DNA of 64,000 bases. Source: a bacterium (GTDB taxonomy: Bacteria; Elusimicrobiota; Elusimicrobia; Elusimicrobiales; UBA9959). The DNA lies in assembly GCA_021811315.1 (NCBI GenBank), contig JAJZPF010000002.1, positions 95,958 to 159,957 of the forward strand, given 5' to 3'. Numbering within the stretch: position 1 is the first letter of the stretch; the number at the start of each line of letters is the position of its first letter. Below, piece by piece: positions 2,537 to 63,465 of the stretch. The position numbers were made by a program, and so were the translations under genes. Under the pieces are notes generated by a model, which made no database searches, was not told the DNA's origin, and saw only the letters and a program-made list of their open reading frames with translations.

Positions 2537-2539
2537 TTG

Positions 2540-3451: not shown

Positions 3452-3480
3452 TTTTATTCTCCTTTGTTTTTGTCCAACAG

Positions 3481-5352: not shown

Positions 5353-6047
5353 AATTCAAGCCCCTCCTCTTTTAAACCTATTGATACGGGAGAATTCGCT
5401 TTCATTGGGCGGATGTCCTTTCGAATTTCGCATTTTTCCGGCCGTAAAAATTCTATTATCCCATTGACCATTGTCGGCCGCCAAAACCGCGCAACTAATT
5501 TGTTTTCACCTGACTCATCCGGATAATCAAAACCATGGAACATTAGCCCATAACCAATTTCATCGGATTTATCATAAAAACCCTGACCAGAACCGAATTG
5601 ACATGGTTCGACATATCCCTGGCATTCTCTTGCGCCAAGGAAAACATCTCGCCGACCGCCAGTCGTTATCATGCGGTTGGCAATGCTAAAATGCTTGCCT
5701 TCGTTTCGATCCTTTTCCATATCTGCCCGTCTAAAATTCCACTCGAAATGAGCCTGTACCTGATACTCAACATCGGCTAAATAGGTGTAAATTGACAGAT
5801 CATTCCCGCCATTGAACTTCAGGGGTTTTACGCCTTTTGTCTGGGTTTTGACAGGGTTCATCACACGGATTTTATCGATAAACCAGGTGAACGTCGGTTT
5901 CCAATAGACAGAACTTATAACCCCTTTAATCGCCTCGTATGTCGGGACATGATATGAACATTTCTCTCCCCCGATTCTTGTAAGTGGATCGGTGAAAAGA
6001 GCGAACCGCCCATGAATTTTAAAAGTAACTCTGTTTCCATTTTGCAT
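5349..6047 (-). CDS. cas5: Cas5d (type I-C pre-crRNA processing/Cascade subunit)
   Basis: 232 aa with a Cas5-like N-terminus (FKIHGRFALFTDPLTRIGGEKCSYHVPTYEAIKGV). Located between cas3 and cas8c. Confidence 0.9.
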   Translation of the reverse strand: MQNGNRVTFKIHGRFALFTDPLTRIGGEKCSYHVPTYEAIKGVISSVYWKPTFTWFIDKIRVMNPVKTQTKGVKPLKFNGGNDLSIYTYLADVEYQVQAHFEWNFRRADMEKDRNEGKHFSIANRMITTGGRRDVFLGARECQGYVEPCQFGSGQGFYDKSDEIGYGLMFHGFDYPDESGENKLVARFWRPTMVNGIIEFLRPEKCEIRKDIRPMKANSPVSIGLKEEGLEL

Positions 6048-6062
6048 TTCGCATCTCCTCTG

Positions 6063-8489: not shown

Positions 8490-8513
8490 TGATTTATAGG
8501 GCTTCGGAGGAAA

Positions 8514-9359
8514 TCATTCCTTCCGTTCCAGTCTTTTCCGGCTTTCGGACTCGGTCAGATAGTTTTCACGGGACACAACCCGCTTTCCGGTTTTTTCCTC
8601 AAGGTCTTTACGCGCCTTCCCGGCCACGCCGCCGCCTTTAACGGCCGCGCGCCGGTTTTCCGGGAAGCCGCGCGCGTCGCCGGTCCGGGCTATTTCCGTT
8701 GTGGACGCCTCGCCGAGCATTGAGAAGATCAACTCCAGATCGGTCATATGGTCGCGCAGATTTTCCCGTTCCAGGCCCTTGATCTTTTTATGGGCGGAGG
8801 GAGTCACGCCGAAGGCGGCCTTTGCTATTTCCGCGGTCAGGATCTCATATTCTTTGGGCTTTTCAACTTCCCGCTTTTTCCATTCATCTGTCAATTCTTC
8901 GCGAATAGCAATGCCGCGCATTCGCTTTTCTATCCAGTTTTCAGAATACCCTTTAAGCTTATAGAGCATCCTGGTTCTTTTGGTCGCCAGCTCAGGATCT
9001 TCAATTTCCTGCACCCGCTCATAGCCCACTTTTGCCAGCCAGCGCTTGAAAGGCTCCGCTTTTGGCGAAGGAATTGATTGAATGAGACGAAATATGCCTT
9101 CGGTATTCCAACAATACATTTTTTGCCAGCCGCCGGAGGTCTCCACTTCAAGGGTAAGGGGTGGTACAAATTGTACCCCCCCTTTAGCTGTAAGTTTCGC
9201 AAGTTCCTCATCTCTCTGTTTTAATCTTTTGAAGTATTGCGCCGGGTCATTGGAATCTGTCAAGGTCTCAATAACATCGTTGATCACAAACCACCACTCA
9301 TTTTTATACAGAGTCCGGCGTATTCCCTTTCCTTTAAAAACCGCAATTTTTCTGTCCAT
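8514..9359 (-). CDS. Bro-N domain protein with DinD-like C-terminal region (phage antirepressor-like)
   Basis: N-terminus KIAVFKGKGIRRTLYKNEWWFVINDVIETLTDS fits the Bro-N pattern. The C-terminal part (KKIKGLERENLRDHMTDLELIFSMLGEASTTEIAR...) resembles E. coli DinD. Start placed at ATG 9359, which has GGAAGG 8 nt upstream. The track start at 9389 has no ribosome-binding site. The stop lies 24 nt upstream of the cas3 ATG. Confidence 0.7.
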   Translation of the reverse strand: MDRKIAVFKGKGIRRTLYKNEWWFVINDVIETLTDSNDPAQYFKRLKQRDEELAKLTAKGGVQFVPPLTLEVETSGGWQKMYCWNTEGIFRLIQSIPSPKAEPFKRWLAKVGYERVQEIEDPELATKRTRMLYKLKGYSENWIEKRMRGIAIREELTDEWKKREVEKPKEYEILTAEIAKAAFGVTPSAHKKIKGLERENLRDHMTDLELIFSMLGEASTTEIARTGDARGFPENRRAAVKGGGVAGKARKDLEEKTGKRVVSRENYLTESESRKRLERKE

Positions 9360-9472
9360 ATTCAGAACCTTCCTGTAAGCAGCAGTCATAAATGCTGATA
9401 TACGTTAAAAATTCACTCTAATATCCTAGCACATGAACCCGACAAGGGCGTGTTGTTTTTTTAAAATTAAGC

Positions 9473-9742: not shown

Positions 9743-12271
9743 ATGAGCCGGCCGGACTTCCCTCTGCCGTCCTCCCACTCCAATGGGGAGCCTGAACTGG
9801 CCCTCGAGGTGACCTGCCGCGAGGACCGCGATGAGATGTACGCGGCTGTTCCTGAAACCGGCACTCCGGACCGGTTGTATGCCGAGTTGCACGCGGCCCT
9901 GCTTCCCGGAGGGCTGGCGTTCATGGAAAGTGACCACGGCGGAGACAAAGAGGAGCTGCTGCCGCCGCCGACGGACACGGAGCAGCTCCAGAGCGAGTTT
10001 CTCAACCGCCTGCGCCGGTTTGCCCGCCGCTTCAAAGTGCCGCCCGCGAACTGGCGCTTTTTCGTGGACAGGGGGCGAAAGATCCGGACGGTTCCCACGC
10101 TCACATTTCCCGCCTCCTGGCAGAACGCGGGGACGCTGCGCGCTTCCCAGAAGATTTACCGCAGCGACGAGGAGTTCGAGAGACTGGAACAGGCCGGCCG
10201 GCACACCGAGGAAGGGGCCAGACTTCTGGCTGAGGGCCGTTACCGCAAAGCCATGCGCCTTTTCAAGGAGGCCCGCGCGAAGGACCCGGGCTACTACCTG
10301 CCGGCGCTTTTCCTGGCGGAGCTGGCGCTGAGCGAATCAAGCTGGGAAGAGGCGGGACATCTGCTCGATGAGGCGGGGAAGCTCTTCCGGAGGGATGGCC
10401 CCCGGACCAAGAAACAGTTTATCCGCGACGGCGGGCGGCTGGAGGCGGCCGGGCTGCGGCTGCGCGAAGCCCGGCTTCTGAAGGCCGCCACCCAGGCGGC
10501 CGCGCCCGCAGCGGCGGCGGCCGGCCCCAAGCCTGCCCAGGCGCCCGAAGCGCCGGTTGACTGGAGTGCGCCGCACCTGCCCGCCTGGCTTGCGGCGCGC
10601 TATACACAGGGCCCTTTTGACTCGCTTGCACGCTACCGCCTGCGGCTGGAGGCGGAGCAGGTGAGGACACTGGGGAGTTTCAACGAATTACTCAGCCCCG
10701 CGCAGTCGCGCATTCTGCCCTTCGAGCACCAGGTCCGGGCGGTCCGCGTCGCCCTGCGGCGTATGCGCGGGCGCGCGCTGCTGGCCGACGAGGTGGGCCT
10801 TGGCAAGACGATCGAGGCCGGGCTCGCCCTCAAGGAGTATCTGCTGCGCGGCATGGCCGCCAGGGCGCTGATCCTGGTGCCGCCGGTGCTCACGGAGCAG
10901 TGGCGCGAGGAACTTTCCACCAAGTTCGGCATTGAAGCCGCGGTTTTCATGGGGGAAGACGGCCCCGAGGGCGCGTGCTGGGGCCGCCCGGGCGTGGCTG
11001 TGGCCTCTCTGGCCCTGGCCAAGCGCGAGCCGCACCGAAGCCGTATCCTGGCCCAAAGCTATGACGTCGTCATCGTGGACGAGGCCCACCACCTCCGCAG
11101 GCGGCAGACCCTGGCCTGGCGGCTCGTCAATGAACTCAAGACCAAATTCCTCTTTCTGCTCACGGCCACGCCCATCCAGAACGACCTCGACGAGCTATAC
11201 AGCCTGGCTACGCTCCTGCGCCCGGGGCAGCTGGGCACTCCCGCGCAGTTCGGCGCGCGCTTCAAGGAGCGTGGCGACGGGCGCAAGCCGCGAAACCCCG
11301 GGGACCTGCGCGCGTTACTGCGCGAGGTTATGATCCGCCATACGCGCGCCAGCGCCGCGGTGGTGCTGCCGCGGCGCGTGGCGCGCACAGTCTCGGTTCC
11401 CATGGAAGCGCCGGAGCGCGCGGCCTACGAGGAACTCTCGTCCCTGGTCAGGTCGCTGGGAAGCGCGGCGGGGAAAAACCCGCTCTTTCTTCTCACGCTC
11501 CTCCAGCGCGAAGCGGGCTCGGACCTGCACGCAGCCCTGCCGACCCTGGCTAAGATCGAGCCGCGGCTGGCGCCGCCGGCCAGGGCCCGGTTGAAGGAAC
11601 TCTCGGCCGCCATCACGGGGCTATCCGCGCCGGGCAAATGGGGAGCGGTGCGCAATATCCTGGCGCATCACCCCGGCAAGTGCCTTATCTTCACCGAATT
11701 CCGGGCTACGCAGGCGCGCCTGGCCGCGGCGCTGACGGCGGCCGGGGAGAGCGTGGAGATATTCCACGGCGGTCTGTCCCCCGCCCAGAAGAGCGAGGTC
11801 ATGAACCGCTTTGAGGGACCCGCGCGCATCCTCCTCTCCACTCCCGCGGGCGGCGAGGGAGTCAACCTCCAGTTCTGCCGCGTCCTCGTCAATTACGACC
11901 TGCCCTGGAACCCCATGCGCATAGAGCAGCGCATCGGGCGCCTGCACCGCCTCGGCCAGACCGGGGAGGTGATGATCTACAACCTCGCCTCTCCTGATAC
12001 GGTCGAGCACCACCTGCTGCGCATTCTCAGCGAGAAGCTGAACCTTTTCGAACTGGTGGTGGGGGAGGCGGAAACGATCCTCGGCGAACTCACCGAGGAT
12101 AAGGAATTCGAACAGATCCTGATGGAGACGTGGCTTGAAGCCGCCGACGCGCGGGAGGCGGGCGAAAGAATGGAGCAGCTCGGCGAACGGATCATGCGCG
12201 AGAAGGAGAGTTATATGGAGATCAAGAAACTTGATGAAAGCATGTTCGGCTCCGACTACGAGGCGGCCTGA
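9743..12271 (+). CDS. SNF2-family ATPase/helicase with a long N-terminal extension (TPR-like segment, Ala/Pro-rich linker)
   Basis: Motifs LADEVGLGKT (I), VIVDEAHHLRR (DEAH, II), LLLTATPIQNDLDELYSL (III), LLSTPAGGEGVNLQ and YDLPWNPMRIEQRIGRLHRLGQ (V/VI). Start placed at the first ATG (9743); the track ORF begins at TTG 9602. The true start is uncertain. Confidence 0.85.
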   Translation: MSRPDFPLPSSHSNGEPELALEVTCREDRDEMYAAVPETGTPDRLYAELHAALLPGGLAFMESDHGGDKEELLPPPTDTEQLQSEFLNRLRRFARRFKVPPANWRFFVDRGRKIRTVPTLTFPASWQNAGTLRASQKIYRSDEEFERLEQAGRHTEEGARLLAEGRYRKAMRLFKEARAKDPGYYLPALFLAELALSESSWEEAGHLLDEAGKLFRRDGPRTKKQFIRDGGRLEAAGLRLREARLLKAATQAAAPAAAAAGPKPAQAPEAPVDWSAPHLPAWLAARYTQGPFDSLARYRLRLEAEQVRTLGSFNELLSPAQSRILPFEHQVRAVRVALRRMRGRALLADEVGLGKTIEAGLALKEYLLRGMAARALILVPPVLTEQWREELSTKFGIEAAVFMGEDGPEGACWGRPGVAVASLALAKREPHRSRILAQSYDVVIVDEAHHLRRRQTLAWRLVNELKTKFLFLLTATPIQNDLDELYSLATLLRPGQLGTPAQFGARFKERGDGRKPRNPGDLRALLREVMIRHTRASAAVVLPRRVARTVSVPMEAPERAAYEELSSLVRSLGSAAGKNPLFLLTLLQREAGSDLHAALPTLAKIEPRLAPPARARLKELSAAITGLSAPGKWGAVRNILAHHPGKCLIFTEFRATQARLAAALTAAGESVEIFHGGLSPAQKSEVMNRFEGPARILLSTPAGGEGVNLQFCRVLVNYDLPWNPMRIEQRIGRLHRLGQTGEVMIYNLASPDTVEHHLLRILSEKLNLFELVVGEAETILGELTEDKEFEQILMETWLEAADAREAGERMEQLGERIMREKESYMEIKKLDESMFGSDYEAA

Positions 12272-13375: not shown

Positions 13376-14230
13376 TTAAAGGCCAGTTATGTCCTGGAAG
13401 ATGATCCCCGCGCCTATTACTTTTCCGTCCACGCCCTTTATATTGATCGAGCTGTAGCCGATAATTTTTTCCTTCCCTTTTACGCTGCATTTGAAATCCA
13501 TGCGGCGGACGGTCTTCCCCTGCTTCAGCACGTCGGTGATGGCGGTGACGATGTCGGGGCAGAGCTGCATCAGGTCCGCCACCTGCTTATTGAGGAACTC
13601 CTGCCCTACCTCGAAGATCTCGGAGGCCTTGGGGTTGAAGAAGAGCACCCTCCCCTCCATGTCGGAACCTATAAAGCCGCCGGAAAGGTTGTTTATGGTG
13701 CTTTCGCCCTTGAGGTTAAGCTGCTTGATGGTGGCCTCGAGCTTCTTGATATAAACTTCCCTCGCCACCAGCGCGGTTATGAGGTCCGCCGCCTTGAGCT
13801 GCTCGTCGGAGAAAGCGCCGGCGATAGAATTTATATATTCCATTATGCCGAGCAGCTCGCCGTTGGCGATAGCGGGCACGGCGATCACCGTCTTGGTCTG
13901 GAAGCCGGAGCCCTTATCCACCTTCTTGGTGAACAGCGGGCTGTTCTCCGCGTCGTTGATCAGCAGGGCTTTCCGCGATTCGGCGCAGAAGCCCACCACG
14001 CCCTGGTAGCCGAAGCTTACGCCGACCAGGTCGCCGCCGACCGGGCCGATGCTTTTCCTGAAAGTGAGCCGCTTCTTCAGGTCGTCGGCCTCGAAGAAAG
14101 TGCCGGCGTGGCAGTTCACTATGCCGGCGCCCCTGCGCGTCAGGTATTCCCACAGGGCGTCCTCGCCCCTGGCGGCCTCGGCCGGCAGGCCCTCGGTGAA
14201 TTTTGACAGGAATTCAAGCATCTCGCTCAT
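13376..14230 (-). CDS. GAF plus PAS domain sensor protein without recognisable output domain
   Basis: 284 aa. N-terminal half is GAF-like (VVGFCAESRKALLINDAENSPLF...VIAVPAIANGELLGIMEYIN). C-terminal half is PAS-like (FIGSDMEGRVLFFNPKASEIFEV...). The ATG overlaps the stop of the upstream amidase gene (TCAT at 14227-14230 on the plus strand). Confidence 0.7.
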   Translation of the reverse strand: MSEMLEFLSKFTEGLPAEAARGEDALWEYLTRRGAGIVNCHAGTFFEADDLKKRLTFRKSIGPVGGDLVGVSFGYQGVVGFCAESRKALLINDAENSPLFTKKVDKGSGFQTKTVIAVPAIANGELLGIMEYINSIAGAFSDEQLKAADLITALVAREVYIKKLEATIKQLNLKGESTINNLSGGFIGSDMEGRVLFFNPKASEIFEVGQEFLNKQVADLMQLCPDIVTAITDVLKQGKTVRRMDFKCSVKGKEKIIGYSSINIKGVDGKVIGAGIIFQDITGL

Positions 14231-16068
14231 TTTTGACCCTTCCTCGCGGAGTATGTCCTCGCCGGGACTTCGAAGAATTCAAGCACGCCTTCGGCGATAG
14301 AGCCGGCCAGCTCTTCCTGGAAGGCCGGCGTGTTGAGCATTTCTTCCTGGCGGGGTATTATCATGTAAGCGTTCTCTATCAGCGCGGCCGGCATCCAGGT
14401 CATGCGGGCCACCAAATAGTCGCCGTAGCGCAGGCCCTCGTCGGGCAGCGGTATATTTTTAAGGTAGGCGCGCTGGATGGCGGCGGCGAGCGCCCGGCTG
14501 GGGCGCTGGTAGTGGTAGATGGAAAAGCCGCGCGGCTGCGCGTAAGGGTCCTCGCCGTCGCCTATGGCGTTGTTATGGATGCTGAGGAACAGGTCCCCGC
14601 CCAGGTCCCTGGCCAGCTTCGGGCGGTCGTTCAGTTCCACGTTCTCTTCCCCGTTGCGGGTCATCTGCACGGATGCCCCCAGCTCGACGAGCTTCGCCTT
14701 CAATTTTAAAGCTATAGCGAGGTTCACGTTAACCTCGAAAGTTTCCATGGGGCCCACGGCACCGTCCAGGCTGCAGCGGGCGGAGGCCGGCATCGAGCTG
14801 TAGCGGGCGTCGCGCAGGGGAAGCCGGCTGTTATTGTCGCATTTAAAATACGGCGAATGCCCCGGGTCGAGCACCACGGTGATCCCGCTCAGCGGCCTGG
14901 GCCAGGCCAGGGAAGCCCTGGGGCGGGAGCGCAGGTCCACCTGCAGCGCTTTAGAGGACCCCGGGTAGGAAATATTATAGCCCCAGAGCGCGCCGGGCTC
15001 CGTCTCGAAATCAAGCTCCACCTTGTTATAGGACGCCTGGCGGAAAGAAACGTTCTTGACCAGGGTATCGGCGGAATCGTAGACCACCGTGTTCGTATGC
15101 TGGTTGGCGTAGTAGAGCGTGACGCGGAGGCCCCAGGGGAACACCTCGGCCGTATACGGGAGGCGGTCGTAAAGAGTGACGGTGGCGGAGGAGCCGAAGT
15201 CGGTCTTTTTCAAGCGTATCGAACCGGTTTCGCTGCCGTAGCCGAAAGGATACTGCGCCCCTGAAACGGGCTGCACCTTTGAATCGTCCACCCACCCCAG
15301 CTCGTCGTTGGTAAGGGCGATGCGGCGCTGGCCGTTGGTCCGGCCGCTGGAGACGAGCTTCACGCCCTTCGGCAGGAACATCATATAGCCGCCGTCCGTC
15401 GCGTTTTTAAGGATGACGGTATCGGTGGAGGTCTCTACCAGCGCCGGCCGCTTGAGGACCTTTATTTTTCCTTTGGCCTTAGCGGAAGCGCCGCGCGCGA
15501 AAAGCCCCGCCTTGAACCGCGCGGAGAGGGCGCCGCCGGAACCCTGGTCGGCGTCTTTGATCCTGTAGGAGGTATAATACCTGCCCGAACCCTGCGGGAC
15601 CTCGGTCATCTGCAGGTCCTCGAAAACACCGTCGAGCGAGCAGACCGCCTCCCTGGAGGGCGAGCCGGCGGCCGTGATCTTCAGATAGTCCTCAGGAGCG
15701 ACTTCGGCGTCCGCGGCGTAGGAAGTGAACTCCAGCTTCAGCGTGCCCGTAGACGGGCCCGCGTCCGCGGGCTGGCGCACTTTCACCGCGCGCTGCGCGG
15801 TGGTCCCGTCGTCGAGCGTGCCGATGAAAGAGAAGTCCCCGGGCGCCACCGGCAGGTAGGCGATGAAGCCGCCGTTGGTATAGACCTGTATTTTTTCCCC
15901 GTTTATGGTGAAAGCGGCGGTGGCCGGGGAAATATTCCCGAACACGAAGGTCTTGGGCACGGAAGGGATGGAGCTCCCGTCCGGCGGGTAGACGAAATTT
16001 ATCTGCCCGGCGTAAAGCGGGAGTCCGGCGAGGAGGATCAGGGCTGCTGGGTTCAGGATACGTTTCAT
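14227..16068 (-). CDS. Secreted N-acetylmuramoyl-L-alanine amidase (Amidase_3 family) with long N-terminal domains
   Basis: C-terminal VVLDPGHSP ... DLFLSIHNNA motifs of AmiA/B/C-type amidases. Start placed at ATG 16068, giving a signal peptide (MKRILNPAALILLAGLPLYAG). The track ORF extends to 16119. Confidence 0.8.
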   Translation of the reverse strand: MKRILNPAALILLAGLPLYAGQINFVYPPDGSSIPSVPKTFVFGNISPATAAFTINGEKIQVYTNGGFIAYLPVAPGDFSFIGTLDDGTTAQRAVKVRQPADAGPSTGTLKLEFTSYAADAEVAPEDYLKITAAGSPSREAVCSLDGVFEDLQMTEVPQGSGRYYTSYRIKDADQGSGGALSARFKAGLFARGASAKAKGKIKVLKRPALVETSTDTVILKNATDGGYMMFLPKGVKLVSSGRTNGQRRIALTNDELGWVDDSKVQPVSGAQYPFGYGSETGSIRLKKTDFGSSATVTLYDRLPYTAEVFPWGLRVTLYYANQHTNTVVYDSADTLVKNVSFRQASYNKVELDFETEPGALWGYNISYPGSSKALQVDLRSRPRASLAWPRPLSGITVVLDPGHSPYFKCDNNSRLPLRDARYSSMPASARCSLDGAVGPMETFEVNVNLAIALKLKAKLVELGASVQMTRNGEENVELNDRPKLARDLGGDLFLSIHNNAIGDGEDPYAQPRGFSIYHYQRPSRALAAAIQRAYLKNIPLPDEGLRYGDYLVARMTWMPAALIENAYMIIPRQEEMLNTPAFQEELAGSIAEGVLEFFEVPARTYSARKGQK

Positions 16069-30796: not shown

Positions 30797-31063
30797 GCAT
30801 GGGCCGGAACGCAAAACGCGTTCGGGCACACCGTGCCCTCACTCCGTGTTCGCCCGCCGGGCTATGCAACCGGCGGGCTCTCCGAGGGTTTTGCTAACCC
30901 GGCCCATGCGTCACCCTGATTTAGCTGGTAAGTACAAGTAGACTTGCCGGTTGACGAGGTGACAGGGTTAGCAAAACCCTCTCGGAAGGCGAGGCTTGCG
31001 TAAGCGCCGAGCCTGAGAGCGGGAGTGCCGAGCACGGTGTGCGAGAGCACGTTTTTGCGTTCC
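30797..31063. repeat. Intergenic structured repeat, copy A: two inverted units forming a roughly 260-bp imperfect palindrome
   Basis: Outer arms 30806-30846 and 31020-31063 are imperfect reverse complements. Exact 15-mer inverted repeat GGGTTTTGCTAACCC (30886-30900) / GGGTTAGCAAAACCC (30965-30979). Internal hairpins GGGCACACCGTGCCC (30824-30838) and GCCCGCCGG-9nt-CCGGCGGGC (30852-30878). The left unit is itself bracketed by GCATGGGCCGG (30797-30807) / CCGGCCCATGC (30899-30909). Confidence 0.8.
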
Positions 31064-38934: not shown

Positions 38935-39006
38935 TGCCGCGGGTTGGGATCGAACCAACGACACCTGGTTTTTCAGACCAGTGCTCTACCACTGAGCTAC
39001 CGCGGC
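38935..39006 (-). tRNA. tRNA-Phe (anticodon GAA), CCA not encoded
   Basis: Minus strand GCCGCGGTAGCTCAGTGGTAGAGCACTGGTCTGAAAAACCAGGTGTCGTTGGTTCGATCCCAACCCGCGGCA. It folds into a cloverleaf by hand: 7-bp acceptor stem, anticodon stem CTGGT/ACCAG, loop CTGAAAA, T-arm GTTGG-TTCGATC-CCAAC. Confidence 0.93.
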
Positions 39007-44913: not shown

Positions 44914-44950
44914 AGTACTCCTATAATATTGTTTTCCGCGAGATGCCCAG

Positions 44951-45092
44951 TCGGGGGCCTGGCAAGGGTATGGGCCCGTCGCTCACGGCGTCGCGCACAC
45001 CGTGCGCGCGCCTCCCCTCTCGGCCCTCGCGCTTATGCAAGCTCGGGCCTCCGAGAGGTCGCTCCGAACCCATACCCTTGCCACCCCTCCGA
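44951..45092. repeat. Intergenic structured repeat, copy B: single unit with the purine-rich strand in the mRNA sense of the pur operon
   Basis: Perfect 14-bp closing inverted repeat GGCAAGGGTATGGG (44961-44974) / CCCATACCCTTGCC (45069-45082). Core aligns block-by-block with the copy-A units (GCGCACACCGTGCGC at 44993-45007; GCTTATGCAAGC; CCTCTCGG/CCGAGAGG at 45016-23/45051-58). Fills most of the 185-bp purM-purNH spacer. Confidence 0.8.
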
Positions 45093-45098
45093 AAGAAC

Positions 45099-46067
45099 TT
45101 ACTTTAAAAGAACTTCGTTCTTGCCTTTTACTATCTCACCTATGAGCACGGAATCTTTTAAGGTTTTGAGGGCGGTTTTTACGGCGGCGGGGCGGACTAC
45201 GGCGATCATGCCCAGGCCCATATTGAATGAGTCCCACATATCGGCTTCGGGGATATTGCCGAGGCGCTGGATTTCGCGCATTATCGAGGGGGTTTTCCAG
45301 GAATCCTTGTAGACTATGGCGCTCAGGTTCTTGGGGAGCACGCGCGGGAGGTTGCCGGGGATGCCGGAGCCGGTGATATGGGCGAGGGCGAGGACGTCGT
45401 GTTTCTTTTTGCGCAGGGCGTAGCGCAGCTTGTTTACGTCTTTGACGTAGATCTTGGTCGGTGTGAGCAGGCGGGCGGCGTATTTCTTCAGGAGTTTTTT
45501 ATCGTCCAGTACTTTTCTTATGAGGGAAAAGCCGTTGGAGTGGAAGCCGGTGGACTTCAGCCCGATCAGGACGTCGCCGGGCCTGACTTTCTTGCCGTCG
45601 AGGATCTCGGAGTTCTTCACGATGCCGACCGAGAAGCCGGCGAGGTCGTATTCGCCGGGCTGGTAGAAGCCGGGCATCTCGGCCGTTTCGCCGCCGAGCA
45701 GGGCGGATTCGCCCTGGCGGCAGCCTTCCAGGATGCCGTCGATTATTTTCTTGGAGCGGGCCAGGTCGAGCTTGCCGGTGGCGTAGTAGTCCAGGAAGAT
45801 CATGGGGCGCGCGCCGCAGCAGAGGAGGTCGTTGACGCACATTGCGACCAGGTCTATGCCGATGGTATCGTGTTTATCGAGCAGGAAAGCGAGTTTCAGC
45901 TTCGTTCCCACGCCGTCGGTGGAGGCGACCAGGCTGAACTCGTTCTTGCTCTCGGCTATGGGCAGGAGCCCGGCGAAGCCGCCGATAGCTTTGGACTTTT
46001 TCTCGAGGAATTCGGTAAATTTATCAGAAAGCTTTATATCCACTCCGCTTTTTTTATAAGTCGTCAT
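45099..46067 (-). CDS. purM: AIR synthetase (phosphoribosylformylglycinamidine cyclo-ligase)
   Basis: 322 aa; YKKSGVDI, DGVGTKL, GGETAEMPG motifs. Confidence 0.92.
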   Translation of the reverse strand: MTTYKKSGVDIKLSDKFTEFLEKKSKAIGGFAGLLPIAESKNEFSLVASTDGVGTKLKLAFLLDKHDTIGIDLVAMCVNDLLCCGARPMIFLDYYATGKLDLARSKKIIDGILEGCRQGESALLGGETAEMPGFYQPGEYDLAGFSVGIVKNSEILDGKKVRPGDVLIGLKSTGFHSNGFSLIRKVLDDKKLLKKYAARLLTPTKIYVKDVNKLRYALRKKKHDVLALAHITGSGIPGNLPRVLPKNLSAIVYKDSWKTPSIMREIQRLGNIPEADMWDSFNMGLGMIAVVRPAAVKTALKTLKDSVLIGEIVKGKNEVLLK

Positions 46068-46105: not shown

Positions 46106-47356
46106 TCACAAACCTATGTCTTTCCTGTACTGCATGCCTTCGAAATGTATTTTCGAGACGGCGGCATAGGCGCTCTTCCTGGCTTCTTCCAGGCTGGCTC
46201 CTGCGGCGGTCACGGAGAGCACGCGTCCCCCGCTGGTCACGTAGCCGTCGTCTTTTTTCTCCGTCCCGGCGTGGAAGACCAGCGCCCCGGCGGGAACTTT
46301 ATAAAGGCCGGTTATCTCTTTTCCTTTCTCCGGGTTCTCGGGATAGCCTCCGGCCGCCAGGCCTACGGAGACGCAGGCCTGCCCGTTGAGCTCCAGCTCT
46401 TTCCCGGCCAGCTTGCCGTCGGCGCAGGCCTTAAGCAGGGAAAGCAGGTCCCCCCTCAGGAGCGGCATTATCGCCTGGGTTTCGGGGTCCCCGAAACGGC
46501 AGTTGAACTCCAGGACCTTGGGGCCGTCCGGCGTGAACATTATCCCCGCGAAAACGACGCCGCAAAACGGGATCTGCTCCTTTTTTACGCCGTCCACGAA
46601 GCGCTGCAGTATTTCATTTTTTATTATTTCGAGGTCGGGGGCGGAGATCTCTACGGGGGCTACCGCGCCCATCCCCCCGGTATTGGGCCCCTGGTCGCCG
46701 TCTTTCAGGCGCTTATGGTCTCTCGCCACCGGGAGCATCAGGAAAGACTTGCCGTCCACCAGGGCCAGGACCGAAGCTTCCCGGCCGGTCAGGAATTCTT
46801 CCATGACCACTTTCGAGCCCGCGGAGCCGAAGATCCTTTTCTCCATGAAATCGGAAACGGCGCTCAGCGCTTCTTCCTCGTTCGCGCAGATGCGCACGCC
46901 CTTCCCGGCGGCCAGGCCGTCGGCCTTGATCACTACCGGGTATTTCTTGTTCTCTTTTATTTTTTCTCTTGCGAACTCAGCGGAGTAAAGGATGGTGAAG
47001 GAAGCGGTGGGAATGGAATTCCTTCCCATGAACTCCTTGGCGAACTGCTTGGAGGCTTCCAGCATGGCTCCCTTCTGCGAAGGGCCGAAGACCTTAACGC
47101 CCTTCGCGGAGAGAAAGTCGCTTATCCCTTTGGCCAGGGGCGCTTCCGGCCCTACCACGACGAGCTCTATCTTCTTCGCCAGGCAGCAGGCGTGTATTTT
47201 CTCGAAGTCGTCGACCGCTATTGCGTGGCATTCGGCCAGGCTTTTCATCGCGGCGGAGCCCGGCACGGCGTGCAGTTTCCCGAGCTGCGGGCTTTGCCTT
47301 ATCTTCCAGGCCAGGGCGTGCTCGCGGCCGCCGGAACCGATAAGAAGTACGTTCAC
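46106..47356 (-). CDS. purD: GAR synthetase (phosphoribosylamine-glycine ligase)
   Basis: (V)NVLLIGSGGREHALAWK N-terminus. Start placed at GTG 47356, overlapping the purF stop (GTGA). The track ORF extends upstream into purF. ATP-grasp motifs present. Confidence 0.88.
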   Translation of the reverse strand: MNVLLIGSGGREHALAWKIRQSPQLGKLHAVPGSAAMKSLAECHAIAVDDFEKIHACCLAKKIELVVVGPEAPLAKGISDFLSAKGVKVFGPSQKGAMLEASKQFAKEFMGRNSIPTASFTILYSAEFAREKIKENKKYPVVIKADGLAAGKGVRICANEEEALSAVSDFMEKRIFGSAGSKVVMEEFLTGREASVLALVDGKSFLMLPVARDHKRLKDGDQGPNTGGMGAVAPVEISAPDLEIIKNEILQRFVDGVKKEQIPFCGVVFAGIMFTPDGPKVLEFNCRFGDPETQAIMPLLRGDLLSLLKACADGKLAGKELELNGQACVSVGLAAGGYPENPEKGKEITGLYKVPAGALVFHAGTEKKDDGYVTSGGRVLSVTAAGASLEEARKSAYAAVSKIHFEGMQYRKDIGL

Positions 47357-48741
47357 AGCCCCGCCTTGGCAGGGAGGCCATAGGCCTTTGCCACCGCGTC
47401 CACGCGGGTATTGTATTTCCCGGTAAAGCAGGAAACGCAGAAATTCCTGTCCTTCTTGTCGCCGCAGGCGGAGACCAGGCTTTCCAGGCTGAGATAATGG
47501 AGCTCGTCGGCCCCGATGAAGCGGCGGATCTTCTCCACCGTCAGGTTGCAGGCTATCAGTTCCTTTTTGCTCGGCGTGTCTATGCCGTAGAAACACGGCG
47601 AGATGATGGCCGGGGAGGCGATGGCCATTATTATCTTCCTGGCGCCGGCCTTTTTGAGGCTCTTAACTATCTTGCGCGAAGTCGTCCCCCGCACCAGGGA
47701 ATCGTCTATAAGTATGATGGTCTTGCCCTGGATAACGTCCCTTATGGGCGCAAGCTTGAGGTGGGCGGTGAATTCCCTCAGGCGCTGGTCCGGCTGTATA
47801 AAAGAGCGGCCGGTATAATGGTTGCGCATGAAAACGGTCTGGAAAGGGAGCCCGGACTCGTCGGAAAAGCCCAGCGCGTAGACCGTGCCGGAATCCGGCA
47901 CGCCGGAAACTATGTCCGCCTTGACGCCCTGCATCTCGCGCGCCAGGAGGGCGCCTATCTCGTAGCGCGACGTCTGGACGGTCCGCCCGGCCACCACGGA
48001 ATCCGGCCTGGCGAAATAAACCTGTTCGAAGATGCAGCGGGTGAAATCCTTAGCCGGGGCGAAACGCCTGAAGCTGGCTTTTCCTCCCTCTATCGTTACC
48101 ATCTCTCCCGGCGCGATCTCCCTTACGACCTTTCCCCCCGCCACTTCGATAGCGCAGGTCTCGGACGCAAGCATGAAGGACTTTCCCAGCTTGCCCAGCA
48201 CCAGTGGCCTGAACCCATGGGGGTCGCGCGCGCCGATAAGCTTGCCCGGCGCCAGGAAGGCGAAAGCGTATGAGCCCTCAAGTTTCGGGAGATTTTTTGC
48301 GAGCGTATCGGACAGGCTGCTCCCGCGGTGTTTTGCCATCAGGTGCAGTATTACTTCGGTGTCGCTGGTGGACTGAAAAATCGCTCCGCCTTTCTGAAGC
48401 TGCTCTTTAAGGCCGTCGGAGTTGGTAAGATTACCGTTATGCGCTACGGCCACCTGGCCGAGATATGAATCCAGGACCAGCGGCTGGGCGTTCTTGATAT
48501 GGCTGGAGCCGGTAGTGGAGTAGCGGACATGGCCTATAGCGCTGCGGCCTTTAAGGGTTTCAAGGGCGTCTTTGGTGAAGATCTCGCTTACGAGGCCCAT
48601 GCCGAGGCTGTGACGCAGGAGCCCGTTATCATCCGTGACGATGCCGGCGGATTCCTGGCCGCGGTGCTGCAGGGTGAAGAGGCCTACATAAGCCAGCCTC
48701 GAAGCGTCCTTATTATCCGAGATAGCGAATATTCCGCACAT
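47353..48741 (-). CDS. purF: Amidophosphoribosyltransferase
   Basis: Mature-type N-terminus MCGIFAI from ATG 48741, with AAGGA 7 nt upstream. PRPP loop IILIDDSLVRGTT. C-terminal Cys residues. The track ORF start at 48930 lies inside the repeat element. Confidence 0.92.
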   Translation of the reverse strand: MCGIFAISDNKDASRLAYVGLFTLQHRGQESAGIVTDDNGLLRHSLGMGLVSEIFTKDALETLKGRSAIGHVRYSTTGSSHIKNAQPLVLDSYLGQVAVAHNGNLTNSDGLKEQLQKGGAIFQSTSDTEVILHLMAKHRGSSLSDTLAKNLPKLEGSYAFAFLAPGKLIGARDPHGFRPLVLGKLGKSFMLASETCAIEVAGGKVVREIAPGEMVTIEGGKASFRRFAPAKDFTRCIFEQVYFARPDSVVAGRTVQTSRYEIGALLAREMQGVKADIVSGVPDSGTVYALGFSDESGLPFQTVFMRNHYTGRSFIQPDQRLREFTAHLKLAPIRDVIQGKTIILIDDSLVRGTTSRKIVKSLKKAGARKIIMAIASPAIISPCFYGIDTPSKKELIACNLTVEKIRRFIGADELHYLSLESLVSACGDKKDRNFCVSCFTGKYNTRVDAVAKAYGLPAKAGL

Positions 48742-48753
48742 GTGTTTTCCTTT

Positions 48754-49019
48754 GGGCTTGCAACTAAATATTATGACCATCTGGCTGAGCTGATTTTGGA
48801 ACGAGACGAAGCGGCGTGAAGCGACGCGTACTACATGTACGCTAGCGGAACGCCGCGAAGGCGCAGCCCAAAAGCAGCCAGCCCCCCGGGGGAGGCCCAT
48901 CTTTGAACCGGCTACTGCGTTGCTCCTCACTCACAGACCACCAGTATGCTCGCTCGTCGCGCCTTGCATCCGGTTCAAATATGGGCCTCCAGATGGTCAT
49001 AATATTTAGTTGCAAGCCC
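48754..49019. repeat. Intergenic structured repeat, copy C: perfect 31-bp AT-rich inverted repeat enclosing two inverted core units
   Basis: GGGCTTGCAACTAAATATTATGACCATCTGG (48754-48784) is the exact reverse complement of 48989-49019. An inner 21-bp inverted repeat (20/21) lies at 48891-48911 / 48970-48990. Core blocks are shared with copy E: 48856-48880 vs 62846-62870 (22/25), and 48947-48967 reverse-complemented vs 62797-62817 (20/21). The element spans exactly from the purQ stop codon to 13 nt before the purF ATG. Confidence 0.9.
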
Positions 49020-49759
49020 TATCCGACGTAATCCACCGCGTTCTTGAAGAACTGGTACCCCGCGGCCGCGGCTTCCCGGGCGGCGGCGGGCCGGTCCGGG
49101 TTCTGCCAGGCGAAGAAGTTCCGCTCCGGGTGCGGCATCAGGCCGAAGCAGGTCCCCGCGGCATTGGTTATGCCGGCGATATCAAGCATGGAGCCGTTGG
49201 GGTTTTCCGAATAGGTCATGGCGTGGAGTTCGCGCGCGGTCAGGTCCGCCATTATTTTTTTGTCCTCCACGATGAACTTCCCCTCGCCGTGAGCGATAGG
49301 CAGCTCTATCTCTTCCGGGAGGCCCTTAGTGAAAATGCAGGGGCTCTTTTTATTGATCCTTACTTTTACCCACTTGGCCAGGAAATGGCCGCAGTCGTTG
49401 GTATAAAGCGTGGAAACCTGCGCGTTCCCTTTATTCTCTGGCAGGAAGCCGGTCTTCACAAGTATCTGGAAACCGTTGCAGATGCCGATGACCGGCCTTT
49501 TATCCTTGATGAAAGCCCCGAAATCCGCCGAGAGGCGGCTCATCTTCACCGCGTAGATCTTGCCGGCCGAGATATCGTCGCCGTAAGAGAAGCCGCCGGG
49601 GAAGGCCATCAGGGAATAATCCAGGACCTTTTTCTCCCCGGACAGAAGCTGGTTTATATGGACCAGTTCCGGCTCAGCTCCGACGTATTTAAAGGAATTG
49701 AAAGTTTCAATGTCGCAGTTAGTGGCGGTGCCCCGCAGGATTATGGCTTTGGGCTTCAT
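49019..49759 (-). CDS. purQ: FGAM synthase, glutamine amidotransferase subunit
   Basis: 246 aa; catalytic GICNGFQIL and HGEGKF motifs. Confidence 0.92.
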   Translation of the reverse strand: MKPKAIILRGTATNCDIETFNSFKYVGAEPELVHINQLLSGEKKVLDYSLMAFPGGFSYGDDISAGKIYAVKMSRLSADFGAFIKDKRPVIGICNGFQILVKTGFLPENKGNAQVSTLYTNDCGHFLAKWVKVRINKKSPCIFTKGLPEEIELPIAHGEGKFIVEDKKIMADLTARELHAMTYSENPNGSMLDIAGITNAAGTCFGLMPHPERNFFAWQNPDRPAAAREAAAAGYQFFKNAVDYVG

Positions 49760-52140
49760 ATGAGCTCCCTCTTCCAGCAGGTTTTCAGCGCAAAGATATC
49801 TTCCCTGAAAAGCTGAACGCCGCCGTCGTTCACATCCAGCAAAGGCTCCTCGTTAACAAACCCTATTTCGCCGACCGGCAGGCCCTTTACGTGCTTAAGG
49901 AATTCCGCCTCCCTGTCCTTTACCACCTCGAGGACAAGGCGCGAGGGGCTTTCCCCGAACAGAAGTTCCAGCGCCGACAGGCCTTTCTCCCGGCCCGCGG
50001 CGGAAAGGTCTATTTCCGCCCCGAAGCCGCCGGAGAAAGCCATCTCGGCGAGAGTAACGGCGAGCCCGCCCTGGGACACGTCGTGCGCGGCGCAGACGCA
50101 GCCGGTCTTTATGGCCTTAAGGAGGGCCGTATACATCCGCACGGCCGCTTTCATGTCCAGCGGGGCGATGTAGTTATTACCGGCGACCATCATATCGCCG
50201 TACACGGAGCCGCCGAGGCCGCGGCGGCTTACGCCGGCCAGGTAAACCGGGTTCCCGGCTTCCTTGAAGTTCATCGTTATAGCTTTGCGGATATCCTCCA
50301 CGGGCGCGGTGGCGGAGATCAGCAGCGAAAGCGGGATCGGGTATTCCTTCCCGTCGGCGTCTTTGGACTGGTTGTAGAAACTGTCCTTGCCGGAGATGAA
50401 GGGCGCGCCATAGGCCATGGCCGCGTCGTGGCAGCCTTCAGCCGCCAGGACCAGGTCCCCCATCACTTCCGGATCGCGGGGACTGGCCGCGCAGAAATTG
50501 TCCAGGATAGCCGTGCGCGAGATCTCCGCGCCGACGCAGAGCAGGTTCCTGACCGCTTCGTCCACAGTGTGCAGCGCCATCTGGTAGGGGTCTATCTTCC
50601 CCGCCGCCGGGTTGAAGCCGTGCGTTACGGCGAAGCCGGCGAAATCGTTCAGGTCCAGCGTGGCGGCCTGCGGCCAGATCACTGCCGCGTCGCCGGGGCC
50701 GTCGCCGTATTTACCCTGCAGCGGCTTTATCACGGTCCCGCCCTGCACTTCGTGGTCGTACTGGGTTATGACGGAATGCCGCGAGCACACATTAGGGTGC
50801 GCGAGCATTTCTTTAAGGATCCCGCCGTAAGTCTTCGCGGGCTGGAGCGGGGCGCCGTCGATTATCTTCACTTTGCGCCGCGCGGCTTTTTTTTCGAAAT
50901 TAGGAACCCCGCCGTGCAGGAAAGCCATAGGCAGGTCCACTATCTTCTCGTCGCCGTGCGTGACCAGGAGCTGCCCGTCGCCCGGGAAGGTCCCCAACAC
51001 GCAATATTCGCAGCTTTCAGCGTTAAGGATGGCCTCGAGCTTCTTAAGCTTGGCCTTGGGTACTGAAAGTATCATTCGCTCCTGCGACTCCGACACCCAG
51101 ATCTCCCAGGGCTCTATGCGGGTGTCTTTCAGTTGCGCGTCCTCCAGGCGTATCCGCGCCCCGGTCTCCGAACCCAGCTCGCCGATGGCCGAGGAGAAGC
51201 CGCCGGCCCCGCAGTCGGTCACGGCGTTGTACAGGCCGAGGTCGCGGGCGCGCATCAGCACGTCGAGGGTCTTTTTCTCGTTCACGGCGTGGCCTATCTG
51301 CACGGCCGAAGCGGAGGTGTCCTCTTCTATGTTCGCGGAGGAAAAAGTGGCGCCGTGGATCCCGTCGCGGCCGGTCCGACCGCCGATGGAGACGACCAGG
51401 TCGCCGGGGACCACTTTCTTGTCTATTTTGTCCGTCGGGATAAGCCCGGCGCAGCCGACGTAGACCAGCGGGTTGAGCAGGTACCCGTCGTCGAAATAGA
51501 GGCCGCCGGAGGCGGTGGGGATGCCGATGCGGTTGCCGTAATCGCGAACGCCTTCCACCACGCCGCGCATGATGCGCTCCGGGGAATGCGAATTTTTGGG
51601 GAGCTTTTTTTTGCTGTCGAGATAGCCGAAACAGAAATTATCGGTATTAAGCACGGGCTTCGCGCCCAGGCCGACGCCCAGGATGTCCCGGATCACCCCG
51701 CCTACGCCCGTCTCGGCGCCGCCGTAAGGCTCCACCGCGCAGGGATGGTTATGGGTTTCCGCCTTGAAAGCCAGTCCCCATTTCCCGTTCTTGCCGAATT
51801 CCACTATCCCGGCATTGTCGGTAAACACGGAAAGGCACCACTTCCTGTCCAGGGTCTTAGTAGCCTTCACGATAGTCTCTTTGAAGAGATTTTTGTATTT
51901 CTTTACTTTGCTTCCGGACTTGAAGGAAACCGGTCCGGAAAAAGTTTTATGCTTGCAGTGCTCGGACCAGGTCTGGGCCAGGGTCTCGAGTTCCCCGCGC
52001 GAAGGCTGCCTGCCCATTTTCCTGAACTCCCGCTGCACTTCGGCGAGCTCCAGCGCGTTCAGCGACCAGCCGCAGGTCCTGTCCAGCTCCGCCAGCTGCT
52101 TTTGACTTAAAGAGGTAAAATTAGAAAGAGGGTTTTGCAT
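49756..52140 (-). CDS. purL: FGAM synthase subunit II
   Basis: 794 aa; ETHNHP, GGVIRD, PurM-like repeated domains. 4-nt overlap with purQ. Confidence 0.92.
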   Translation of the reverse strand: MQNPLSNFTSLSQKQLAELDRTCGWSLNALELAEVQREFRKMGRQPSRGELETLAQTWSEHCKHKTFSGPVSFKSGSKVKKYKNLFKETIVKATKTLDRKWCLSVFTDNAGIVEFGKNGKWGLAFKAETHNHPCAVEPYGGAETGVGGVIRDILGVGLGAKPVLNTDNFCFGYLDSKKKLPKNSHSPERIMRGVVEGVRDYGNRIGIPTASGGLYFDDGYLLNPLVYVGCAGLIPTDKIDKKVVPGDLVVSIGGRTGRDGIHGATFSSANIEEDTSASAVQIGHAVNEKKTLDVLMRARDLGLYNAVTDCGAGGFSSAIGELGSETGARIRLEDAQLKDTRIEPWEIWVSESQERMILSVPKAKLKKLEAILNAESCEYCVLGTFPGDGQLLVTHGDEKIVDLPMAFLHGGVPNFEKKAARRKVKIIDGAPLQPAKTYGGILKEMLAHPNVCSRHSVITQYDHEVQGGTVIKPLQGKYGDGPGDAAVIWPQAATLDLNDFAGFAVTHGFNPAAGKIDPYQMALHTVDEAVRNLLCVGAEISRTAILDNFCAASPRDPEVMGDLVLAAEGCHDAAMAYGAPFISGKDSFYNQSKDADGKEYPIPLSLLISATAPVEDIRKAITMNFKEAGNPVYLAGVSRRGLGGSVYGDMMVAGNNYIAPLDMKAAVRMYTALLKAIKTGCVCAAHDVSQGGLAVTLAEMAFSGGFGAEIDLSAAGREKGLSALELLFGESPSRLVLEVVKDREAEFLKHVKGLPVGEIGFVNEEPLLDVNDGGVQLFREDIFALKTCWKRELI

Positions 52141-62170: not shown

Positions 62171-62743
62171 ATGAACATAAAAGGATCCAAAACGGAGCAG
62201 AATCTGCTTGCCGCTTTCGCGGGAGAGTCGCAGGCCCGCAACCGCTATAGCTATTACGCGAGCGAAGCCAAGAAAGAGGGCTATGTGCAGATAAGCCTGG
62301 CTTTCGAGGAAACCGCCAACCAGGAAAAGCAGCATGCGAAGCGCTATTTCAAACTGCTGGAAGGCGGCGAAGCTACTATTACCGCAACTTTCCCGGCCGG
62401 AGTAATTGGCGACACAAAGGCCAACCTGAAGGCCGCGGCGGGCGGCGAGAATTTCGAGTGGACCACCCTGTATCCGGGTTTCGCGAAAATAGCCCGCGAA
62501 GAAGGCTTTGAGACGGCGGCCAAGACCTTTGAATTCATCTGCGTGGCCGAAAAGCAGCATGAAGCCCGCTACCTCGGTTTCCTGAAGAACCTCGAGGAAG
62601 GGAAAGTCTTCAAGAAGGACAAAAAGATTCGCTGGCGCTGCCTGGAGTGCGGCTATGTCCACGAAGGGGAAGGGGCCCCGGAGAAGTGCCCGGCCTGCGC
62701 CCATCCCAAAGCTTACTTCGAAATGCTCTGCGAGAACTGGTAG
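62171..62743 (+). CDS. rbr: Rubrerythrin
   Basis: 190 aa. Ferritin-like di-iron motifs (GESQARNRY, EEKQHAKRY, ENFEWT, EKQHEARY) and C-terminal rubredoxin-like CLECGYV...CPACAHP. Confidence 0.92.
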   Translation: MNIKGSKTEQNLLAAFAGESQARNRYSYYASEAKKEGYVQISLAFEETANQEKQHAKRYFKLLEGGEATITATFPAGVIGDTKANLKAAAGGENFEWTTLYPGFAKIAREEGFETAAKTFEFICVAEKQHEARYLGFLKNLEEGKVFKKDKKIRWRCLECGYVHEGEGAPEKCPACAHPKAYFEMLCENW

Positions 62744-62904
62744 CAGTCTCCTGATTAACCCTACTCGGTGTTATTTTGAGACGATTTTGTGACGAGGCAA
62801 GGCGCGAGGAGCGAGCAGGCTTGAAAGCCTGTAAGCGACGAGCAACGAAGCCGCAGGCCAAAAGCGGCCAAAAGAACCCGAAAGAGGGTTCATCAGTAGA
62901 CTGC
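62743..62904. repeat. Intergenic structured repeat, copy E: single unit with the purine-rich strand in the mRNA sense
   Basis: Closing inverted repeat GCAGTCTCCTGAT (62743-62755) / ATCAGTAGACTGC (62892-62904), 12/13 complementary. Internal hairpins CAGGCTTGAAAGCCTG (62816-62831), GCCGC-9nt-GCGGC (62850-62868) and GAACCC-GAAAGA-GGGTTC (62874-62891). Core blocks are shared with copy C. Spans from the rbr stop codon to the tpx RBS. Confidence 0.8.
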
Positions 62905-62916
62905 AAAAAGGAAACT

Positions 62917-63465
62917 ATGGACGAAAATATAAGCGGTGAAGCCAAAAAAGAAGCTGTAAAGCGCACGGTGACCATGCAGGGCCGCCCGATGGCGCTGGTC
63001 GGAGAAGAGATCAAAGTGGGGATGACGGCGCCTGACTTCAAGGTAACGGCCAACGACATGCTGCCCATGAAGTTCTCCCGCACCTACGGCGGCAAAGTGG
63101 CCGTCATAAGCGCCGTGCCCTCGCTGGACACGCCGACCTGCGACCTGCAGACCCGCCGCTTCAACAAGGAAGCCGAGGCGCTGGGGCCCGACGTAGGCGT
63201 GCTCACCATCAGCATGGACCTGCCTTTCGCCCAGAAGCGCTGGTGCGGAGCGGCCGGAGTAAAAGCGGTAAGGACTTTCTCCGATTACCAGAAAGCCGAC
63301 TTCGGCAAATCGTGGGGCATCCTGATAAAGGACCTGCGCCTGCTTGCAAGGGCCGTCTTCATCGTGGACAAGGACGGCATAGTGAAATACGTCCAGTTGG
63401 TGCCGGAAGTCAGCAAGGAGCCCAACTACGACGAAGTCCTCACCGCCCTCCGGGCGCTGGTGTAG
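62917..63465 (+). CDS. tpx: Thiol peroxidase (Tpx family)
   Basis: Start at ATG 62917 (AAGGA upstream). [11 protein letters not shown] peroxidatic Cys; [12 protein letters not shown]. The track ORF start at 62776 lies inside the repeat element. Confidence 0.88.

Follow-up and report, generated by a model that had tools for sequence, protein, structure and literature searches.

MITEs range in size from about 70 to 300 bp and have no coding capacity (PMC3733652). The PIF/IS5 superfamily makes TTA/TAA target-site duplications, and the Tourist-like elements of the PIF-Harbinger-IS5 group are small and non-coding, with terminal inverted repeats starting GG(G/C) and 3-bp TAA/TTA duplications (PMC4565680). 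The Correia elements of Neisseria (CREE/NEMIS) and the ERIC elements of enterobacteria are MITEs that lie beside or between genes, are co-transcribed with them and form long RNA hairpins. Correia hairpins are substrates of RNase III and alter mRNA stability (PMC2649163, PMC10969869, PMC3733652). REPINs and BIMEs, which are mobilised by RAYT, combine two inverted palindromic units in one long hairpin; they are multi-copy and intergenic, and are often found within operons. REPs lack terminal inverted repeats as well as target duplications, and a GTAG or CGTC tag is typical of them (PMC3733652).

The element described here resembles each of these in part. It fills the spacer between purQ and purF in the window, by which we mean the whole 64-kb stretch of DNA that was analysed. 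We conclude that this 266-bp block is very probably a non-autonomous MITE inserted into the TAA stop codon of purQ, where the spacer was originally 10 nt long, and that the arms at its ends are terminal inverted repeats. Its size of 266 bp fits the range for MITEs, and its likeness to Tourist-like elements lies in being small and non-coding, in its termini and in the duplications made by its family. The differences are as follows. The arms are 31 nt long, whereas those of PIF are quoted as 14-25 bp, and the search of ~1.2 Mb of loci described below turned up no cognate transposase for the present family. Unlike Tourist-like elements, the present family has an internal hairpin that is far more conserved than the termini, and it occurs in both a monomeric form (~160 bp) and an inverted-dimer form (~270 bp). 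Such a hyper-conserved internal hairpin is not usual in standard MITEs and to that extent speaks against this reading; we infer a role for it below. Correia and ERIC elements duplicate TA and are each confined to one genus or family, whereas the present family duplicates TAA/TTA and is found in many phyla. It also differs from REPINs and BIMEs in having both terminal inverted repeats and target-site duplications. The family is apparently undescribed: a literature search that included the core sequence strings found no description of it. The features of the window that are needed below are these.

49756-52140, minus strand: purL, upstream of purQ.
49019-49759, minus strand: purQ (E = 2e-62 for NCBIfam PurQ); the element went into its stop codon, 49021-49019.
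48989-49019, no strand: right terminal inverted repeat; its outermost base, 49019, supplies the G of the purQ TAG on the gene strand.
48887-48987, minus strand: hairpin B, the canonical GA-core unit, with its core at 48915-48967 matching the core pattern exactly.
48882-48892, no strand: central CCCCCCGGGGG mini-palindrome, joining hairpins A and B (read from the sequence).
48785-48886, plus strand: hairpin A, a degenerate GA-type unit; the plus strand is purine-rich, with GAA/GAA-type internal loops.
48754-48784, no strand: left terminal inverted repeat, the gene-strand 3' arm, adjoining the purF ribosome-binding site.
48742-48753, minus strand: ancestral purQ-purF spacer AAAGGAAAACAC, with the purF ribosome-binding site, kept downstream of the insert.
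47353-48741, minus strand: purF (TIGR01134, E = 3e-146, aligned from residue 2), beginning MCGIF... with its ATG at 48741.
62743-62904, plus strand: second family member, a 162-bp single hairpin between the genes for rubrerythrin and thiol peroxidase.

Most of what the first-pass annotation had described at this junction is borne out. By direct comparison GGGCTTGCAACTAAATATTATGACCATCTGG (48754-48784) is the perfect reverse complement of 48989-49019, over 31 of 31 nt and with 204 nt between the arms. The inner repeat reported at 48891-48911 and 48970-48990 matches at 20 of 21 positions, as had been said, and the two inverted core units are indeed there, unit B canonical and unit A degenerate and in the opposite orientation. 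The right arm adjoins the purQ stop (49019-49021) with an overlap of one base. Some figures needed adjustment. The arms, given as about 39% GC, come to 41.9% (13/31); the surroundings, given as above 60%, come to 58.8% for the window, with 60.8% for the interior between the arms; and the distance from the left arm to the purF ATG, given as 13 nt, is 12 nt (48742-48753). Allowing up to three mismatches, the 31-nt arm has just two copies in the 64-kb window, and matches were obtained in 0 of 100 shuffles. The 266-bp block contains no complete ORF of at least 60 aa, the sole overlap being an in-frame upstream extension of purF.

That the block is an insertion is shown by the same junction in related bacteria, a comparison that the first-pass annotation had proposed. 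The protein collection has no entry identical to the PurQ of the window; the relatives of this protein place the source in an uncultured Elusimicrobiales lineage of groundwater-type metagenomes. The site is empty in seven related Elusimicrobiales lineages (loci L001, L002, L003-L007, L012 and L153-L155), where purQ ends in TAA and is followed by 9-10 nt and then by ATGTGCGGAATATTC, the same sequence at which purF begins in the window. These relatives have PurQ proteins that are 86-95% identical to that of the window, and the nearest is 87% identical in purQ DNA. In two of the loci (L002 and L155) the empty-site spacer, AGGAAAACAC, is the spacer of the window itself. Since the junction of the relatives consists of TAA and a short spacer, and since the window spacer matches, we read the difference as 266 (or 264) bp inserted into a TAA stop. 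The insertion is lineage-specific. It kept the stop of purQ, which in the window is now TAG (the reverse complement of 49019-49021), and left the purF ribosome-binding site intact. A lineage further removed (L008-L011) has a different structured insert of ~260 nt in this spacer. The purQ-purF junction is thus simply a tolerated landing site.

Copies of the window type are found elsewhere. Full-length homologues, 85-90% identical and with homologous termini (GGGCTTGCAAC...), lie at unrelated loci in other assemblies, most of them between undamaged TAA or TTA duplications, and window-type copies occupy at least eight distinct loci in such assemblies. Termini homologous to the window arms bound the elements at L050, L104, L138, L143, L144 and L145. 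The copy at L050 (Elusimicrobia GWF2_62_30) is 267 bp long, is 89.5% identical over its full length and lies downstream of a terminator-like hairpin; this locus was assembled independently as L140. A genome scan gave the 270-bp copy at L104, with CTA and TTA as flanks. The others (L138, L143-L146, L149, L152 and further ones) were found in metagenome contigs with a degenerate arm pattern. They comprise a 315-bp element at L138 that runs from GGGCTTGC to GCAAGCCC between two TAA flanks, a 264-bp copy at L143/L149, a 266-bp copy with CTA and TTA flanks at L144, a truncated copy with TAA on both sides at L146/L152, and, at L145, a 67-bp mini-element that consists of the arms only and is flanked by TAA and TAA. 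In partial window-type copies the end that can be seen is flanked by TAA or TTA. An exact search with a 22-mer of the arm gave no match in genome, metagenome or viral collections, and plasmid and phage collections contained no match to the element.

It had been argued earlier that perfect arms of this length imply either a very recent origin or strong selection. Neither is necessary. Among six full-length copies the two arms differ at 0, 0, 0, 1, 1 and 2 of 31 positions, and a perfect 31-mer is thus the norm for the subfamily. The window arms depart from those of other copies at positions 12, 13 and 18, with each change mirrored in the partner arm, and the arms of L050 form a perfect pair with variants of their own. 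Over 67 subfamilies the agreement between arm and partner is 92%, a figure that is partly built in by the way elements were selected and that we do not count as evidence. The first-pass annotation had also seen in the repeat a special feature of the pur operon, a view that by its own account would fall if the 31-mer were the conserved terminus of many dispersed copies. It is such a terminus, and hence the element is a conventional MITE in this respect. The purQ-purF insertion itself is ordinary: its striking palindrome is the scar of a transposon and not a device of the pur operon.

The window holds one composite and one single-unit member of the family. The latter, at 62743-62904, has the G of a TAG stop as its first base and extends to immediately 5' of the ribosome-binding site of the next gene; in the relative L015 the rubrerythrin-peroxidase junction is 20 nt long and has no element. 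It folds like hairpin B. A covariance model of the unit (R1) gives 86.7 bits for positions 62777-62878 of this element (unit C) and 82.9 bits for unit B on the minus strand (E = 2e-24). These are the only units that the model finds in the window, unit A going undetected at E<=1, and in the pur loci of close relatives it has no match. Unit C and hairpin B share the core GCAAGGCGCGA(S)GAGCGAGCA ... TGTRAGYGA(S')GAGCAACG. Hairpin A aligns with units B and C at a mean column identity of 74%.

A second hairpin on the opposite strand recurs in other composites as a relaxed GA unit, which is near-canonical in L019, L127 and L088. In L104, L144 and L147 the model detects two units, one on each strand; in the window composite, L050, L138 and L143 it detects one alone. 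The same plan is seen in the ~273-bp element of the Verrucomicrobia MAG RA.bin147: a ~31-nt AT-rich arm (GGGTCTGTGCAAAAATTAATT...), a GA-core hairpin, CCC...GGG, a hairpin of opposite polarity and the inverted arm. The CCC...GGG mini-hairpin takes the position equivalent to CCCCCCGGGGG in composites from other phyla. Judged by this layout, the composite consists of two "arm + GA hairpin" modules joined as an inverted dimer, of which unit A has decayed in the window copy.

The most conserved part of the family is the hairpin core. Scanning one genome per GTDB species with a degenerate gapped pattern yielded at least 120 loci, in which a core of ~45 nt with three tandem G·A/A·G loops is almost invariant; this invariance is partly imposed by the search pattern, and AAGGCGCGA, on the 5' side of the core and outside the pattern, is nearly invariant as well. 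The loci belong to at least seven bacterial phyla. They come from Elusimicrobia, Verrucomicrobiota (including Methylacidiphilales), Acidobacteriota (many of them Vicinamibacterales) and Omnitrophota, and also from a Saprospirales MAG, a Peribacteria (CPR) MAG and a Myxococcales MAG. Copies within one genome are nearly identical, flanks included; between genomes the stems differ and the pairing is kept. In 50 non-redundant units 91% of the pair cells are standard, as against 71% after shuffling, and the covariation score is 0.50 as against 0.17, with 0 of 500 shuffles reaching 0.50 and slid controls at ~0.1. Within the core a single pair varies, with 18 sequences having G:C, 17 having C:G and 11 having A:U. 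Searches of Rfam gave only sub-threshold chance matches to miRNAs and sRNAs in the pur-spacer region (E<=10), one tRNA and nothing else for the whole window at the gathering threshold, and no match at E<=1 for four loci from other phyla.

What might the hairpin be for? Its G·A loops are asymmetric, their complement being C·U mismatches, and they are never turned into Watson-Crick pairs. This suggests that recognition probably involves the purine strand when it is single-stranded, be it DNA or RNA. If the structure had been selected by hosts for a function in mRNA, an orientation bias would be expected. None is seen. Relative to the purine strand, flanking genes are sense in 21 cases and antisense in 26, convergent in 21 and divergent in 18, and single-hairpin elements are sense in 14 and antisense in 13; the coding strand was called with a simple GC3/G1 score, which was correct for 20 of 21 known genes. 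Hence the core seems to be conserved for the propagation of the element. Since the GA hairpin travels with the transposon across phyla and shows no preference of orientation, it is most likely a cis-acting structure that serves the element's own propagation and is recognised as single-stranded DNA or RNA.

We suggest, tentatively, that the GA core may be a new structured module, either a hitherto unrecognised kind of transposition signal in single-stranded DNA or RNA or a functional RNA carried on a MITE and spread between phyla. As a signal it would be read by a transposase or a host factor, and the outer arms would need just to pair. If either idea is correct, no bacterial MITE family with a conserved structured cargo would be more widely distributed. 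Models of IS5/PIF-type elements would then gain a component based on structure, and the hairpin would offer a convenient marker with which to follow horizontal transfer between uncultured lineages. Whatever its role, the family is notable for crossing many phyla that are known mostly from metagenomes.

A related suggestion is that the GA core is an autonomous functional motif of RNA or single-stranded DNA, with a function other than transposition and with the transposon as a mere vehicle. In such a motif, tandem sheared G·A pairs might offer a platform for the binding of a protein, to the benefit of the host or the element. The near-invariance over at least seven phyla, including AAGGCGCGA, speaks for this, as do the strong covariation of embedded and flanking pairs, the G·A loops that are never 'repaired' to Watson-Crick and the dimer, which puts a purine-strand unit on both strands. 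However, single-hairpin copies (14 versus 13) have no orientation bias to host transcription, no conserved promoter was identified, and Rfam has no match. Moreover, copies decay after insertion, as unit A in the window has, which suggests that the host does not maintain them. On balance we regard a function apart from transposition as rather doubtful, and we keep to the reading of the hairpin as a signal for the element's own propagation.

The predicted RNA structure at the junction needs to be considered separately. The minus-strand RNA has a predicted Y fold of -149 kcal/mol (z = -9.6), a stability that none of 200 shuffled sequences reached; the Y shape is predicted for either strand of the 266-bp block. 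The 31-bp perfect duplex that the first-pass annotation expected in the pur RNA is present in this gene-strand fold as the outer stem, which is coaxial with hairpin B and stacked on it, with hairpin A beyond CCCCCCGGGGG. On the gene strand hairpin B has three consecutive 2x2 internal loops, 5'-GA/5'-GA, with one or two C:G pairs between them, a predicted arrangement that would have the geometry of tandem sheared G·A pairs. Similar GA-type loops occur in hairpin A, on the strand opposite to that of hairpin B. The purF ribosome-binding site and the flank of the purQ stop are single-stranded in the predicted fold.

Scans for promoters and terminators across the element gave results at chance level. 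From these scans and from the layout of the operon we assume that the insert would be co-transcribed with the pur genes. The folded insert would place the purQ stop next to the purF ribosome-binding site in space, and the lowest part of the stem would be opened by any ribosome that terminates at the purQ stop. If so, translational coupling could persist across the folded-back insert, and this would perhaps account for the survival of the insertion. RNase III binds Correia inverted repeats in mRNAs and cuts them (PMC2649163, PMC10969869), and by this analogy the 31-bp duplex in pur mRNA is plausibly a substrate, and a credible one; a barrier to ribosomes or exonucleases, or some other effect on the mRNA, may be envisaged on the same analogy.

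Could the host have selected the insert as a regulator, that is, as an RNase III site or as a barrier to ribosomes or exonucleases that sets the purQ:purF ratio? The long duplex, extended by coaxial stacking, its predicted stability, the precedent of the Correia hairpins and the precise fit of the element into the gap from stop codon to ribosome-binding site would all suit such a role. However, the element is absent from all seven related lineages, which retain the coupled junction of 9-10 nt, and in L008-L011 the same spacer holds a different element. Furthermore, the same element sits at unrelated loci, such as L050 downstream of its terminator-like hairpin, and the family has no orientation bias relative to genes. 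A regulator of the pur operon therefore seems unlikely to us, and we return to the MITE interpretation and to the mechanism that might have moved the element.

The target-site duplications of the family are best seen in RA.bin147, where 19 copies were aligned and have sharp boundaries. About 13 of the 17 two-ended copies have matching TAA or TTA; since both flanks switch together, being either TAA/TAA or TTA/TTA, this is a true duplication. In Omnitrophota the ~160-bp single-hairpin form has TTA flanks, and in Elusimicrobia REEB4 there is TAA or TTA at the left end, before GGCGCTGTCAAGTAATAACATGGACACTCTGG, an arm plainly homologous to that of the window. Ends could be defined for 93 distinct insertions; the TAA/TTA duplication is exact in 27 of them and has one mismatch in a further 18. 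About 15 of the 93 start and finish with CTAG, the classic IS5 target, which bounds some subfamilies. The footprint of the family points to PIF/IS5 ("Tourist"-like) DDE transposases.

At the purQ-purF copy itself no target-site duplication had been found at the outset, and we agree: with the 266-bp termini the gene-strand flanks are ATA and AAA, a match at 2 of 3 positions. Two models fit. If the termini are taken as GGGC...GCCC (266 bp), the flanks are TA and AA, each a TAA that misses the base proximal to the element. If they are taken as GGC...GCC (264 bp), the flanks are TAG and CAA, followed exactly by the ancestral spacer AGGAAAACAC, and the copy could be read as a TAA duplication whose two proximal bases became G and C. 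The family does, by its aligned flanks, make TAA/TTA duplications, and that of the purQ-purF copy has probably decayed or is atypical. The second window element (62743-62904) repeats the arrangement of TAG before and CAA after the insert.

The insertions have a preference as to site. Of the 93, 28 have the stop codon of a predicted gene at their junction, while only 3% of background TAA/TTA are the stops of good ORFs, which amounts to a tenfold enrichment. Where genomes are as GC-rich as these, TAA and TTA seldom occur except at stops and in short spacers, and copies that land in coding sequence are purged; survivors would hence accumulate at stops. Both window copies fit this pattern, and the family is of note for landing preferentially in the stop codons of tightly packed operons and leaving the operons unbroken.

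We looked for an autonomous partner. In ~1.2 Mb of loci examined there was no autonomous IS or transposase with matching ends, and a scan for units of 0.7-2.5 kb with inverted ends and a TAA/TTA duplication returned one false positive of low complexity. A divergent copy in RA.bin147 (L034/L056), considered as such a partner, adjoins an HsdR-like gene and not a transposase, and lone arms, considered as the ends of one, are those of truncated copies. Hammerhead and other ribozyme cores, integron attC, retron msr/msd and REP/RAYT were set aside, their defining features being absent or true duplications being present.

It could still be asked whether the element is a REP/REPIN or a hairpin derived from IS200/IS605, moved as single-stranded DNA by a tyrosine (HUH) transposase. 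A long hairpin with two inverted units would suit this, and the covariation indicates a single-strand structure. The idea is nevertheless very improbable, as here there are terminal inverted repeats and duplications that vary in step on both sides, and there is no GTAG or CGTC tag of the described REP kind (PMC3733652). A fold-back chimera of assembly is hardly credible at all: the perfect palindromic arms in a metagenome-type assembly might suggest one, and no independent assembly of the exact locus was found, but the interior does not repeat the DNA on either side, both gene junctions are undamaged and keep their stop codon and ribosome-binding site, and full-length homologues of the same architecture occur in several independent assemblies, the L050/L140 locus having been assembled twice.

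A last point concerns annotation, in which inserts of this sort may be called genes or may extend ORFs, and we would advise annotators to watch for them. In the window an in-frame GTG carries the purF ORF into the element. A similar insert is annotated as a gene in one relative.

Besides the 266-bp element between purQ and purF, the window holds a second copy of the same MITE family, a single-hairpin member lying between two genes.

62171-62743: rubrerythrin gene
62743-62904: single-hairpin family member, 162 bp, flanked by the rubrerythrin and thiol peroxidase genes
62917-63465: thiol peroxidase gene

The first base of this 162-bp element is the G of a TAG stop codon, and its end precedes the ribosome-binding site AAAAAGGAAAC. 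At the same junction in a relative (L015), the spacer is 20 nt long and the element is absent.

Along the gene strand, each of the two copies in the window has TAG in front of the element and CAA behind it, with the ribosome-binding site next.

48751-48756 and 49017-49022: junctions of the 266-bp copy
62741-62746 and 62902-62907: junctions of the 162-bp copy

Canonical family copies outside the window have TAA on either side of the element. An identical pair of complementary deviations from TAA/TAA is seen in two independent insertions.

Internal deletion derivatives of the family persist, as is shown by two forms of the window-type element found in other assemblies: a 67-bp arms-only derivative with its TAA/TAA flanks intact (L145, 1042-1108) and a severely truncated copy (L146, about 5979-6020, which is the same as L152, about 1030-1070). 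A copy in the Verrucomicrobia MAG RA.bin147 (L056, 650-2883, the same locus as L034) is cut off directly past the GA core, where it adjoins the 3' end of a gene encoding an HsdR-like type I restriction helicase of 729 aa.

A separate family of long and highly structured intergenic repeats, distinct from the GA-core MITE, has a core similar to GGAGGCCCGAGCTTGC.TAAGCGCG...GCGCACGGTGTGCGCGAC. It occupies several pur-operon spacers in the window and in relatives, and which spacers are occupied differs by lineage.

30970-31059 and 44941-45100: window
6831-7160, 10742-11000, 13613-13860 and 14837-15180: L008, a pur locus of a more distant lineage
1361-1600: L003, a related Elusimicrobiales pur locus
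4943-5031: L012, another such locus

Structured inserts are traps for gene callers. In the purF ORF (minus strand, 47353-48930), an in-frame GTG at 48930 adds 63 codons reaching into the 266-bp element. In L008-L011, the structured insert at the purQ-purF junction is annotated as an 86-aa gene (L008, 10738-10998), for which there is no Pfam match.

Elsewhere, the window contains a complete type I-C CRISPR-Cas locus.

42-412 and 879-9389: CRISPR-Cas locus; array of six repeats (GTTTCAATCCCCGCCCCTGTGCGAGGGGCGAC); minus-strand cas1, cas4, cas7, csd1/cas8c, cas5d and cas3
8514-9389: BRO-N domain protein, after the cas genes
38935-39006, minus strand: single tRNA gene (Rfam)

This tRNA is the sole Rfam match at the gathering threshold within the 64 kb.
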